DNA from: Eledone cirrhosa
Taxonomy: Eukaryota
Direction: 5' to 3'
DNA: 64,000 bases
Assembly (NCBI GenBank): GCA_964016885.1
Contig: OZ024746.1
Coordinates: 30,938,001-31,002,000, forward strand
Each line of letters starts with the position of its first letter. Positions within the stretch are counted from its first letter, which is position 1. A program made the translations under genes and the position numbers. Below are positions 44,657 through 61,260 of this stretch, one piece after another. The notes under the pieces are model-generated. The model was given only the letters and a program-made list of their open reading frames with translations. It was not told where the DNA came from and did not search any database.

Positions 44657-44852
44657 TAACGAAGGAAGTGTGATAAGGAACCAGATGGACCATAACGCAC
44701 CAGAGTACTCAATACTTAGGGTAGTAGAGTGGGTAATAGGAAAATGTTTAACTCCGACGGCAGAGCTCAAGCCGTTTCGACGGCTATTTCTGGACTGTCC
44801 AGAAATAGCCGTCGAAACAGCTTGAGCTCTGCCGTCGGGGTTAAACATTTTC
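44657..44852 (-). mobile_element. Fold-back element of the GCCGTCGAAACGGC family in (TA)n, inside a gfi1 intron
   Basis: Arms at 44740-44795 and 44797-44852; tail at 44657-44739. Confidence 0.8.
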
Positions 44853-45364
44853 ATATATATATATAGTAATTAAGAAAACCAAATTTCGAAGAGCGCTCGA
44901 AAAGGATTGTACACACACGCACATGTATATATATATATATTATATATATATATATTTTATATATATATATATACATATTATATATATATATATATATTCA
45001 TATTATATATATATATTCATATTATATATATATATTCATATTATATATATATATAATATATATATATATATATATATATATATATATATATATATATATA
45101 TATACGAGGTCCTTATCTAGAAGTGTATATGTATTGTCTATTACTTCATTATCTGTTTAATCATTAAGATGAGTGTGTGTGTATATGTGTAAGTAAACGT
45201 TCTACGCCTCTACACGTGTGTATGATTCATGACACGTTCACAACCTATTAACATCACTGAGTTTTCCAATTGATGTACTGTAATCACGTGACATCAATCA
45301 TTAATCTTTTTTTTTTTTTTTTTCTTCTTCTTCAGAATATTGAATTTATTTGCTATTGGAACAT

Positions 45365-46215
45365 CGTGAGGGTAGTATGGCCAAATGGTTAAGAAGTTGG
45401 TTTGGTAATCATTAGGTCTCGGATTCGATTCTACTACGTTGCATCTTTGGCAAGTGTTATTTATCATAGCCAAAGGTTGAATGGTATTGGGTAGACGGAA
45501 ACTGTTTGGAAGCCCGTGGGATCGACTCTTCTTGTAATTCAAATATTGTGTCACGCTGAATCTCGCCAAGAAAGGTTTTGTGTACACCTGTCGGTGGAAT
45601 ACTCAGCCACTTAAAAGTTGATTTCATATTTTATCGATCACTTTTTTGTTAAACTACTAAGTTACAGGACATAAATACAGACACATGACTGACTGGCACT
45701 CCGTCGGTTACGATGACGAGCATTCCAATTGATCTGATCAACGGAATAGCCAGCACGTGAAATTAACGTGGAAGTGGCTGAGCATTCTTTAGACACGCGT
45801 ACCCATTCAGTGTGACACCGAACGTGACAAGGCTGGTTCTTCGCATTACAGGTGCAACTCATTTTTGCCAGCTGAGTGGACTGGAGCAACGTAAAATAAA
45901 GTGTCTTGATCAAGGACACAACGCGCCGCCGGGAATCGAACTTACAACCTTACGATTGTGAGCCGAATACCTTAACCACAAAGCCATGCGCCTTCACATA
46001 CATACATACATACATACATACATACATACATACATACATACATACATACGCACATTCGACGGACTTCTGCAGTGTTCGTCTACCAAATTCACCTCAGAAA
46101 AAATTGGTTAATCCAAGGCTATGGTAGAAGGAACTTACCCAGGATAACAGGCAACGGGATTGAACTCACAACCACGCAATTGAGACTCAAGCTCATTAAC
46201 TACACAGCCATGGCT
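45365..46215. mobile_element. Other tRNA-derived SINE families (45365-45520 plus; 45685-45995 minus; 46055-46215 minus); a relative lies at 48570-48810
   Basis: Minus 45995: GGCGCATGGCTTTGTGGTTAAGG...GTTCGATTCCC...GTGTCCTTGATCAAGACACTT; A/B boxes. Confidence 0.7.
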
Positions 46216-46308
46216 GTTGATTTAGTTTGTTTCAATTTCTTGACTAAGCGGTAAAAAAAAATAAACGTTAAGAATTCACTTCAATCGATCCGAGTTCGAT
46301 CTACTTAC

Positions 46309-47553
46309 CTGTATGTATGTAAGTGTGTTTCTTCATATCCGATTTCTGATGGAACCTCTTGCCACAGTAAGGACAGGGATAGGGCCGAGTGTCGCTGTGG
46401 ATCAGTAAGTGTGTGGAAAGGGTTGAAGACCTTTTAAAAGATTTCCCGCATTGCTGACACTCGAACGTTCGTTCTTGGGTGTGGACTGACCTATGGTGAC
46501 TCAAACTGACTGCGTGACCGAACGTCTTCTGGCACACATCACAGGCATAAGGTCTTGAACCTGTGTGAGATCTTCGGACATGTACCTCCAGTCCGTGGGG
46601 GGTGCCAAACAATTTGTTGCAATTGATACATTCAAACGTCGACGAAGTGGAATCGGGGGCTGCCATGCTGTTGTGTAAATGGCAATTGTTATTATTATTG
46701 TTGTTATTGGAGGTGTTGTTGTTGTTGCTGCTGCTGCTGCTGCTACAACTTTTATTATTGTTAGTATTATTAATGTTACTGTTTGTGTTATTGTTGAAGC
46801 TGTCATAATGTATCGTCTTCCTATCTACATGCATACTATTTATATTACTGTTGTGGTTGTTATTGCCATTGTTGCCATAGTTACTGTAGCTGTTATCACT
46901 CAAAAGATGTTCACTTCCGCCAATCGAAACTTTGCGCAATTCTGGGATAGCTGATGACGAAGGAGGAGGATTGGTAGAGAGTAAGTTTGACGACGACGAC
47001 GACGACGACGACGATGACAATGGCGATGACGATGATGATAACGACGATGCTGATGATATCGGGTATGAGGACGAACTGGAAGATGCAGAAGCTTGTGTTG
47101 CTACTGCTGCTGCTGCTGCTACTGATGGTGATGATGATGACGATGATGAGGAAGACGAGGAAGAGGAGGAGGAGGAAACAGAAGATATTGACGATGTAGG
47201 GTTGAAGGTCAACAACAAAGATGATGGTGTTGACGAGGATTGCTGAGAGGGGGTCGAGGATGTAACCAAACTACCATTACTCTCAACGAAACTTAAGTTA
47301 TCTGGGTAACCATTCGGTTTATTGAGGGGATTCGGGTACCAAAATTGGTAATCGACTGTAAATGGTGGTGCCACAGACTGGTCTCCATAGACGTTCTTTT
47401 TGCTCAAGTAAATATCCGTGAATAATGGTCGGGTGGTGTCCTGGGACAATGGCGGCGATGTTGTAAAGGGAAGTCCGTTCTGGTTGTTGTTTAAACTACC
47501 TTGATACATATTCTGTAGTGGGTATTTTCTGGGTACATACACTGTACCTTGAA
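46309..47553 (-). CDS. gfi1: Gfi-1/senseless-family gene, large internal exon (Ser/Ala/Asn-rich linker + ZF1-4)
   Basis: attttcag|TT acceptor and ACAG|gtaagt donor, both phase 1; [62 protein letters not shown] are Gfi1-diagnostic. Confidence 0.93.
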
Positions 47554-48959
47554 CTGAAAATAGAATGAAATTGGACACAAGGTCAGTCGTGGAGTTAAAG
47601 AGAGAGAGAGAGAGAGAGAGAGAGAGAGAGAGAGAGAGAGAGAGAGAGAGAGAGAGAGAGAGAGAGAGAGAGAGAGAGAAAGAGAGCGAAAATGAGAGAG
47701 AGAAGGAGAGAGAGAAGTGGATTGATAGTAGGTATGTGTGTATATGTATATATATACGTATATATATGTATATATATATATATGTGTGCATATGTATATA
47801 CATATATATATCTACACACATCTCTCTCTCTCTCTCTCTCTCTCTCTCTCTCTCTCTCTCTCTTACACATACTCTCTCTATATATATATAGAAAGATAGA
47901 TAGATAGATCAAAGAACATTTGGGTGAAAGGTCATCTGTGTTGCTATAGGAACCCTGGAAAATTCCAAAGTGGCTATCCGATGGAATAAGAGATATGTGG
48001 ACATTACAAACCCGAGCAACCGACTACCAGTAGACGGTGCCAGTGTAAAGTTAACTACTAAATAATAGAGTAGCTGTGGAACATCACAACAATGGAAGTA
48101 TCTTTTTGAAATATTGATTAAAATAATAAACAGGAAAGGAAAACACAGGTGATGGGGGAAAATACAAGTTAAATAATAAAGAGAGAGAGAAACTCTGCCC
48201 TCTTGGCTCTTCGGTATTTCTCAGCCAGGTCCCGAGGACACGAAAGCAAAGTATTGTCACGGTGAATAGCCAGCGACACCTGCTGCATCAGTTATTCCAC
48301 CTCACAGGGCCCCCACCCCGGCTTCCTGGCTGGGCGGTATTTCTCAGCTAGGCCCCACCAACACAATGGTGCAAGCATTGCCACGGTGAACAGCCAGCGA
48401 CGCCCGCTCCTTCAGCCATTCCACAGTCCTCTATTCGGCAAGGATCATTTACAGTTGAATACATTTGTTCTAATTAAATCACCCGATATATTTTTACTCT
48501 GTGAGTATGTGTGTGTGTGTGTGTTTGTGTGTGTTTGTGTGTGTGTGATGTCTATGTATGTGTGTGTGTAGGACTTCCGTCGGTTCTGACGATGTGTGTT
48601 CCAGTTGTTCAAATTATGGAACAGCCTGCTCCTTAATACTAAGGGAGAGTCAGCATAACACAATATGGGGCGACAAGAATGGCCTTTTGAATTACAGATC
48701 CAACTCATTTTTGCCAGCTGAATGAACTGGAGCAACGTGAAATAAAGTGTCTTGCTCAAGGAAACAACACGCCAACAGGAATTTAATTCACGATTTTACT
48801 ATCGAAAGCCGATTTCTATTTCTAGTGTAGGGCTACGGAAATATTATTTTAAAAAAGAAAAACTAATACAAATAGCTAATTAAAAAATCATAAAGAAGCT
48901 GTGACAACGGTGGGGGGGGGGGGGTACAAAGTTTATAGAGCGATTGGGGAAGCAATATA

Positions 48960-60619: not shown

Positions 60620-60686
60620 ATTTATTATGCCCATTTCAAAAACAAAAATCATCATGGGATGATATCTGTGTTTTCATCAGATAAAA
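60620..60686 (-). ncRNA. Hammerhead motif, paralogue of 56476-56542, within element 60586-61053
   Basis: TTTTAT-CTGATGA-AAACACAGAT-ATCAT-CCC-ATGAT-GATTTTTGTTTTT-GAAA-TGGGCA-TA-ATAAA. Confidence 0.72.
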
Positions 60687-60782
60687 TAGGGATACATGAT
60701 ATGAAACTTAAAAAACACTTGTGAATAGTGAAGTTTTAAATCAACATATGTTGATTTATTTTATATTATTTATACTCCAGTC

Positions 60783-60966
60783 GGTGAATTGGCAGTATCG
60801 GTAGAGGGTCGGACGCCATGCTTTGACGCATAGAGTTACGGCCCTTGCCATTCTGAGTTCAAATCCCGCCGAGGTTAACTTTGCCTTTCATCCTTACGGG
60901 GTCGATAAAATAAAGTACCAGTAATACACTGGGAAATTGCTGGCCTTGTGCCAAAAGTAGAAACAA
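60783..60966 (+). mobile_element. SINE A with an 18-bp target-site duplication
   Basis: ATTATTTATACTCCAGTC at 60765-60782 and 60966-60983. Confidence 0.9.
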
Positions 60967-61076
60967 TTATTTATACTCCAGTCCTACAAACTGTAGAGTG
61001 CTACTTATCCGATATTTGCATTGCTTTATTGTGCTACAATAAACTCACCTCCTTCATTATATATATATACATATAT

Positions 61077-61260
61077 AAAAAGAATCAGGACCCCGACGGC
61101 AGAACTCCGGCCGTTTCGACAGTTAGATCTAGCTGTCGAAACGGGCGGAGCTCAGCCGTCGGGGTCTTGATTCTTTTCATATTACCCAGTCCATTACCCC
61201 AAGTATCGTGTTCTCTGGTGCATTATGGTCCTCCTGGTATCTTACCACACCCTCTTTGTT
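61077..61260 (+). mobile_element. Diverged fold-back member of the GCCGTCGAAACGGC family
   Basis: Arms at 61077-61127 and 61128-61177 with apex GACAGTTAGA|TCTAGCTGTC immediately before GAAAC; tail to 61260. Confidence 0.75.

Follow-up and report, generated by a model that had tools for sequence, protein, structure and literature searches.

Penelope-like elements and their inverted copies at the locus

The window analysed here is a 64,000-nucleotide (nt) stretch of the Eledone cirrhosa genome (contig OZ024746.1, positions 30,938,001 to 31,002,000). The six palindromes that we studied in it are short head-to-head inverted copies of three families of Penelope-like elements (PLEs), flanked by (TA)n. 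A first-pass annotation had placed them at about 44796, 53733 and 61127 (one family, family 1 here), 54388 (a second, family 2), 56170 (a third, family 3) and 55762, and all six are present there; 55762 also belongs to family 1. It had suggested that a nascent complementary DNA (cDNA) folds back on helix II of the element's own hammerhead ribozyme and primes its second strand, or stops at the self-cleaved RNA end, giving an inverted pseudo-long terminal repeat (pLTR). Based on the joints of inverted copies in the genome sequence, we reject snap-back on helix II as the main route, whereas run-off at a cleaved RNA end is supported as a minor one. We consider it probable that one RNA serves as template for two cDNAs, which are primed from both target ends at two sites (A and B), extend to the 5' end of that RNA and are then joined.

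The genome is 3.0 Gb in size, with abundant (TA)n. Exact matches to the tail patterns number 21,375 and 12,064 for two variants of family 1, 12,406 for family 2 and 15,064 for family 3. One copy (L031) is a near-complete family 1 element, with an inverted pLTR with tail, a direct pLTR with tail, an open reading frame (ORF) and a 3' pLTR without tail. The single ORF has pLTRs on both sides and one frameshift. By eye, it encodes reverse transcriptase (RT; YRDD) and C-terminal GIY-YIG-type (VIY...YIG) motifs. A Pfam search of this ORF gave 0/3 matches and a PDB sequence search gave none; its Atlas neighbours are eukaryotic, with RVT_1 in 13-16% of two clusters. The ORF shares DKT, a CxCX5C linker, endonuclease CxxC and CxH and the lack of CCHH with the Hydra clade of PLEs, as do the short element, the (TA)n target and the hammerhead (PMC8557442). 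It differs by RWR instead of RWK. The likeness is one of motifs, by which family 1 appears to fit that clade. Family 3 parents continue into a GIY-YIG coding end with a CxxC-type linker; the sequence examined for family 2 copies stopped short of any ORF.

Family 1 positions are numbered on the L031 pLTR. The core box of the hammerhead occupies 425-431, helix II is formed by 432-440 with 478-485, and GAAA lies at 486-489. The predicted cut falls between 508 and 509, site A is at 528 and site B at about 606. Tail-less arms are called A arms and tail-bearing arms B arms. The features of the six palindromes, and of two further family 2 copies, are as follows.

44659..44796, minus strand: family 1 B arm, reference 468-606
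44797..44854, plus strand: family 1 A arm from reference 469, with a 1-nt loop at the apex
53635..53732, minus strand: family 1 A arm, 528 to 468 plus an untemplated C (53635-53693), then a repeat of reference 503-464
53735..53862, plus strand: family 1 B arm from reference 464, tailed
54334..54385, minus strand: family 2 A arm, ending 1 nt 5' of GAAA
54390..54540, plus strand: family 2 B arm that begins 4 nt 5' of GAAA and includes the palindromic helix III, the cut site and a ~85-nt tail
55746..55762, minus strand: family 1 A arm whose end coincides exactly with the predicted hammerhead cut (509)
55763..55764, no strand: two untemplated nt at the joint
55765..55871, plus strand: family 1 B arm from exactly 509, tailed
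55985..56168, minus strand: family 3 tail-bearing arm that lacks an internal segment immediately 3' of GAAA
56165..56350, plus strand: family 3 tail-less arm from the 5' strand of helix II (loop 56169-56171, GAAA 56180-56183)
56443..56619, minus strand: family 2 copy; its A arm includes the complete minimal hammerhead (core 56530-56536), extends to the upstream hotspot and is joined to no more than the final 18 nt of the tail
60584..61065, no strand: family 2 copy with its apex (60747/60748) at the upstream hotspot; the A arm holds a complete hammerhead (core 60674-60680), and the B arm has lost internal sequence and is split by a 190-nt repeat
61073..61262, plus strand: inverted copy from an older family 1 subfamily; its apex (61127/61128) falls on a natural GATC at reference 474

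The hairpin at 44796 has a folding z-score of -17.7, equalled by 0/200 shuffles, and its arms end at reference 469/468. At 53733, a 40-nt duplicate follows the end of the first arm and the final joint is 464/464; the arms at 61127 end at 474/474. All but 55762 had been described as centred immediately 5' of GAAA, in the helix II position. That description suits 54388, where the arms are 1 and 4 nt off (rare in family 2), and 56170, a true helix II fold with a 3-nt loop and a 4-nt shared stem (rare in family 3). The centres at 44796, 53733 and 61127, however, are offset from GAAA by 12-22 nt in the 5' direction, within the 3' third of loop II (37 nt), and the "helix II" seen there is the inversion itself. 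These three sites appear linked to the ribozyme because the zone where family 1 arms stop, which we call the wall, lies within loop II. The apex at 55762 is at the predicted cleavage site, as claimed, with both arms ending exactly at 509 and two untemplated nt between them. The window also holds palindromes that had gone unmentioned, with apexes ~15-100 nt 5' of an intact core box, at 10263, 16820, 18323, 52297 and 60748.

Hammerhead ribozymes of the parent elements

Untruncated parents of all three families carry type I hammerheads, with core boxes, three helices and an NUH triplet. In family 1 the core is of the U3-A8 type, with an 8-base pair (bp) helix II, the 37-nt loop II, a helix III of 5-6 bp and GUC. 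Families 2 and 3 have canonical boxes and a minimal palindromic helix III. CUGANGA, which full-length parents had been expected to contain, is found as CUGAUGA in family 2 and CUGAAGA in family 3, whereas family 1 has the variant UUGANAA. In the family 1 parent alignment 97.5% of helix cells are paired, position N7 takes all four bases and the remaining core is nearly fixed.

Some results are less favorable. Three of the 14 aligned family 1 parents (L018, L050 and L058, of one subfamily) have a C3-A8 mismatch. The 14 parents show no covariation (no two-sided change), being close copies that are 91% alike, and minimum-energy folds do not yield the hammerhead cleanly (z -0.07 and -0.89). An Rfam scan of the window gave no hammerhead among the 150 of 196 matches listed, which are low-complexity and microRNA-like. 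The C3-A8 core mismatch was also seen in the family 1 parents L029 and L149.

Distribution of the apexes

Copies were picked by their tail alone, from 644 kb of contig C6 around the window and from the first pattern matches on contig C1 (first 53 Mb), with neighbours. The sample comprises 157 family 1, 40 family 2 and 48 family 3 copies, with 9, 2 and 2 duplicates dropped. Copies L001-L032 served as parents only and were excluded from counts, their query having begun at an apex and so being biased. Alignment to 13 parents was used to call arm ends automatically, and miscalls at a few complex joints count against our reading. A strict second call of arm ends yields 80 family 1 joints with GAAA in both arms.

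Inverted copies make up 123 of the 157 tail-bearing family 1 copies, and their tails are one-sided, with both arms tailed in only 2/123. The 3' ends of the inverted arms are fixed: 87/123 lie at 528 and 103/123 at 525-529 (site A). At the other end, 99/122 A arms and 89/148 B arms stop at 461-478, an 18-nt stretch within loop II. Compared with uniform truncation, the check that had been proposed, apexes are strongly non-random (binomial p 4e-50 for A arms and 7e-44 for B arms). The stop rate per nt rises from 0.003-0.01 before the wall to 0.05-0.12 within it, with the wall proper at 461-468. Genome-wide, 10,264 loci have a joint in the 461-478 window, a count that covers one subfamily with exact anchors. 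Only 2/123 A arms pass 461 and 0/123 reach the 5' strand of helix II.

The family 2 hotspot is found 69 nt 5' of C3 of CUGAUGA, with 2,086 loci genome-wide compared with 154 around GAAA and the cut site (the two counts use different anchors). Among the 40 sampled tail-bearing copies, 14 A arms end at most 3 nt from this hotspot. As the hotspot is upstream of the ribozyme, both arms retain the whole ribozyme. Family 3 is dominated by long copies; short ones have their ends at offsets -315 to -301, some 60-70 nt 5' of the core, or within a palindromic A/T tract, and ends inside the ribozyme are rare. At offsets -352 to -293 from the family 3 end, L198 has words around the end cluster that we take to be ETS-, NRF1- and YY1-like, suggesting an internal promoter of housekeeping type.

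Enrichment at helix II had also been anticipated. We find that the hotspots are not caused by helix II: that of family 2 is outside the ribozyme, and the natural family 1 loop II was retained at 0 loci genome-wide (by one pattern, which odd variants could escape), in 0/50 wide-gap joints listed and in 0/123 sampled copies. In family 3, folds in the ribozyme region were found at only 30 loci (one pattern) compared with 15,064 tail matches. Fold-back of a single cDNA on helix II, priming its own second strand, does account for 56170 exactly and for 54388, which adjoins GAAA; moreover, some family 2 and 3 joints use complementarity of helix I, II or III, and arms share subfamily variants. It is thus refuted as the main route and survives as a rare one, with hardly any probability as the general explanation.

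Apexes might also cluster by descent, if a few ready-made hairpin masters had been amplified as units, and some joints do recur letter for letter. However, the joints are diverse in end position and insert and are found in every subfamily, and the recurrent joints fall on natural palindromes or short hairpins. We therefore find this explanation very improbable.

Contig depth from sequencing runs X1, X4, X5 and X6 (family 1) and X1 and X4 (family 2) is lower near the walls, by ~20-fold and 2-4-fold. It was not used as evidence: contig depth is not copy number, X1 may be the assembly's own sample, and X5 and X6 provide 3-4 contigs each.

Probable joints between two cDNAs

The anatomy of the joints indicates that most contain two cDNAs. 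The further-reaching arm among the 80 strict joints is A in 32 and B in 32, with both equal in 16. In L031 the short inverted arm reaches 23 nt past the long ORF-bearing arm, excluding a simple fold-back. The B arm starts 3' of site A in 9/123 copies and hence has no overlap with the A arm. Loops are of 0-2 nt in 35/80 joints. Given these loop sizes, the fact that either arm may reach further, and the non-overlapping arms, a single self-folding cDNA cannot give most joints. In particular, fold-back on helix II fails to explain a tail-less arm that reaches further in 63/123 copies, which is not a copy of the tail arm, and the tail in turn could not be copied from the tail-less arm. The joints generally show neither a second arm contained in the first nor a loop of at least 3 nt with a paired primer. 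The claim that this fold-back yields the inverted pLTR is therefore not upheld.

Inserts are present in 33 of the 80 joints; 13 are blunt, 17 share 1 nt and 17 share at least 2 nt, so that 63/80 have at most 1 nt of homology. Templated inserts and long A tracts occur at some joints and are compatible both with template jumping by the RT and with host end joining. Complementarity of the helices serves as microhomology in 7/80 family 1 joints (at least 2 nt of homology and a loop of at least 3 nt) and, by hand, in ~11/50 family 2 joints listed (palindromic helix III) and ~9/30 family 3 joints listed (ribozyme region). A direct role of the ribozyme structure in integration had been proposed. The fold plays at most a minor direct part, because helix complementarity serves only this minority of joints. 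One joint (C1:52722040) contains five iterated copies of an 11-nt piece.

Subfamily-diagnostic sites agree between the arms in 38, 39, 37 and 36 of 39 copies (expected 21, 19, 14 and 23). This fits one source RNA for both arms, and would fit snap-back too. In a rival form of the model, priming is two-ended as well, but untemplated bases are added to one of the cDNAs where the RNA ends 5', and this cDNA snaps back and is extended. The resulting sense strand then pairs with the partner cDNA. Only the joining step differs, and the apex again marks the RNA 5' end. This would account for the near-symmetry of the copies and for either arm being the donor, and self-priming has been proposed for PLE junction palindromes (PMC3846280). 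Inserts of at least 3 nt in 6/14 cut-site joints and a natural 464-467/474-477 hairpin in 7/80 joints are compatible with it. The 35 small loops, most of them away from natural palindromes, argue against it, as a hairpin loop needs at least 3 nt. So do the 0-2 nt between the arms in 13/19 joints with both arms at 509, and the 9 joints that link non-overlapping arms. We regard this variant as unlikely and favor the joining of two separate cDNA ends.

An assembly artefact was considered and rejected, as the arms have fixed unequal ends, a mean difference of 1.3/46 nt and different flanks.

The wall as a probable start of transcription

Both sharp walls, those of families 1 and 2, fall on the A of TCA/TTA words that resemble the initiator consensus. 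PLE promoters are internal to the pLTR (PMC2377424), and initiator-like words have been noted (PMC3846280). We consider it likely from the arm ends that the wall is a capped RNA start inside the pLTR. Site B is just 5' of the ORF, so that a cDNA begun there runs only to the 5' end of the transcript. With the presumed start inside the family 1 loop II, an RNA initiated in the pLTR would carry only the 3' half of the ribozyme.

Copying of a cap is expected to add an extra C to the cDNA. In the strict joints, the base that follows 468 on the cDNA is C in 5 A arms and T in 1; by hand, it is C at 13 and T at 4 among the 50 loci listed. For family 2, C follows +1 in 19/30 non-perfect joints, ~9 of which are not explicable by the partner arm (hand count). 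These untemplated C residues are suggestive of a cap-copying signal. In four copies (L005, C1:18731498, C1:20838033 and C1:44860423), 12-20 A were added to the cDNA end at the wall.

Several observations detract from a capped start. The C signal is modest: B arms have T 3 and C 1 after 468, and C is common after other stops too (C 13, T 7), all in the strict joints. Of the 99 A arms, 60 do not extend to the presumed +1 but end at 469-478, which requires the assumption of trimming, and family 3 has no single wall. These points leave room for the wall being another fixed RNA end or block, such as a branch point of splicing, an endonucleolytic cut or the footprint of a protein where a nuclease stalled. 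The word TTCAT matches the initiator and the branch-point consensus alike, and ends are spread over 461-478. Penelope of D. virilis has an intron near its start (PMC2377424). Against such alternatives, the extra base is C after +1 at the walls compared with A or T at the ribozyme cut, and the wall includes the A itself. The family 3 cluster at -315 to -301 lies among the presumed ETS-, NRF1- and YY1-like words mentioned above. We judge another RNA end or block to be quite unlikely, and retain the capped start.

Joints at the predicted ribozyme cleavage site

A pattern for family 1 joints between 516 and ~501 has 686 matches genome-wide, of which 100 rows (99 loci) were listed. A hand count of these gives 34/99 in the class: at 22 loci an untemplated insert separates two arms that both stop at G509, and the other 12 have blunt joints (508/509). 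A script check of the first 41 rows finds 14 with both arms at 509 and an insert, 5 blunt (508/509) and 8 with one arm at 509; none of the 41 has both arms at 508 or at 510 with an insert. A arms and B arms are each at 509 in 18/41, and flanks differ between loci. When A is at 509, B is too in 14/18, under a pattern that excludes distant partners. The first base added at 509 is A in 10, T in 5 and C in 1 of the A arms (15/16 A or T), and A or T in 13/16 B arms. Scaled up, this class would comprise ~235 loci, or ~2% of the wall class, a rough figure since the anchors differ; the tail-picked sample contains one case in 123, which is 55762. Thus, the proposed stop of the cDNA at a self-cleaved RNA end generalizes from 55762 to a sharp class at 509 throughout the genome, probably as a minor route. 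We consider it likely that this class records ribozyme cleavage in vivo.

The case has weaknesses. About 8 sampled copies have B near 509-512 and A at the wall, which one pre-cut RNA cannot give. The C3-A8 subfamily is at 509 in 8/33 listed junctions compared with 26/66 for others (hand count). In families 2 and 3, where the sequence is A/T-rich, the cut-site class is ambiguous (~11/50 and 4-6/30 listed joints, by hand), and one exact family 2 cut-site arm (L170) was identified.

Alternatively, the G run or the foot of helix III could have stalled the RT. One unpaired base separates the cut from helix III, which begins at 507; the 12 blunt joints of the 34 are ambiguous between 508 and 509; and the C3-A8 subfamily shows the class. 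In Anolis, no RNA-seq reads were reported to end at the cut (PMC11167929). However, a stall at the stem would copy C508, and the unambiguous joints have both arms at 509 and never both at 508. The untemplated additions are also typical of run-off. Stalling appears to us a rather improbable source of these joints, compared with run-off at a cleaved end.

Other features of the window

At least five more hammerhead-bearing PLE-like families occur in the window (10088-10450, 18177-18530, 52230-52420, 16761-16970, 23205 and 34521). Four of these are inverted, with the apex 15-100 nt 5' of the core box. Three solo tail-less family 1 arms (485-528) at 15161-15204, 15304-15347 and 15643-15686 form a local triplication. 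The 190-nt repeat of which one copy interrupts a family 2 tail is dispersed, in tandem or head to head (49515-50650, 37120-37907, 11249-11656 and 60782-60972). Larger inverted pairs with unrelated spacers are present at 57257-57877 and 52628-53600. We also identified a 4.1-kb tandem array at 25454-29557 (40/80-nt period, ~94% alike). On the minus strand, 369-5596 is a non-LTR retrotransposon with a zinc-knuckle ORF1 and apurinic (AP)-endonuclease and RT frames, Tx1/L1-like by eye. Also on the minus strand, an exon at 46301-47908 encodes three C2H2 zinc fingers after a long Ser/Asn-rich tract, and is, by eye, presumably Gfi1/Senseless-like.

Proposed mechanism and comparison with known systems

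Arms end 3' at fixed site A and at site B ~55-85 nt further, both against (TA)n. After a cut in (TA)n, each of the two target 3'-OH ends would prime the first-strand cDNA that forms one arm. The family-specific wall at which arm ends pile up would be the capped transcription start inside the pLTR. For the single-nt class at the predicted cut, the ribozyme may cleave read-through transcripts, leaving the 3' product as template. To link the two 3' ends, either the RT would jump to the partner cDNA as a new template or host end joining would act; the joint would contain untemplated bases or microhomology of 1-4 nt, which only sometimes comes from helix complementarity. In vitro, the PLE protein of Anolis, a predicted dimer, cleaves and extends the two target strands and has two start sites (PMC11167929). 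Taken together with the junction data, these facts make two-ended priming on one RNA the simplest model.

A fuller picture is, in our judgement, about evenly balanced. In it, a dimeric RT-endonuclease fuses the A- and B-primed cDNAs where the RNA begins, so that each inverted copy would be a fossil product of 5' rapid amplification of cDNA ends. Thousands of copies would record the capped start inside the pLTR. A few hundred would record in vivo cleavage by a U3-A8 hammerhead that is split by that start, cuts only read-through RNA and frees a usable template.

The formation of inverted pLTRs and the role of PLE hammerheads are called open in PMC8557442, PMC4209133 and PMC11167929. The junctions give predictions at the nt level, from a two-cDNA model that links the tail, the two start sites and the inversion. 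They also likely document, at the genomic level, in vivo cleavage by a PLE hammerhead and retrotransposition of the product. Counting of junctions is applicable to any PLE-rich genome. The structures and ribozymes are of known kinds, and what appears to be new is the junction evidence for the mechanism and for cleavage in vivo. A literature search, beyond whose reach most subscription papers lay, found no earlier report of such evidence.

Several known systems resemble parts of this scheme. L1 twin priming likewise yields an inversion from cDNAs that are primed on one RNA by the two ends of the target and then joined, but its arms copy non-overlapping parts of the RNA and its internal primer is variable. 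Here, the arms overlap, giving a palindrome, and start at fixed sites A and B; the process works like L1 twin priming and is not twin priming proper. R2 elements process their 5' end with a hepatitis delta virus (HDV)-like ribozyme as the main route and are known for template jumping, whereas here the ribozyme is a hammerhead and the route a minor one.

Among PLEs, those of Schistosoma share the U3-A8 core variant with family 1, and the minimal palindromic helix III of families 2 and 3 and the location in the pLTR are as in other PLE type I hammerheads (PMC4209133). Family 1 differs from the latter in its helix III of 5-6 bp and in the 37-nt loop II that holds the presumed start. Endonuclease-bearing (EN+) PLEs have the same pLTR-ORF-pLTR structure, adjacent inverted 5'-truncated copy, tail at one end, (TA)n targets and palindrome at the inverted joint (PMC8557442, PMC3846280). 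The tails here are ~55-85 nt compared with 30-40, and most copies are minimal hairpins of an A arm and a B arm. The junction palindromes are interpreted as self-priming in PMC3846280, whereas our junction counts favor two joined cDNAs. Poseidon of Anolis carolinensis (PMC11167929) shares the cutting and extension of both strands, two RT start sites that bound the tail, an AT-rich target and a predicted dimer. In that study, inversions were left unexplained, cleavage was dispensable in vitro and no RNA-seq ends were reported at the cut, whereas in E. cirrhosa genomic joints end there.

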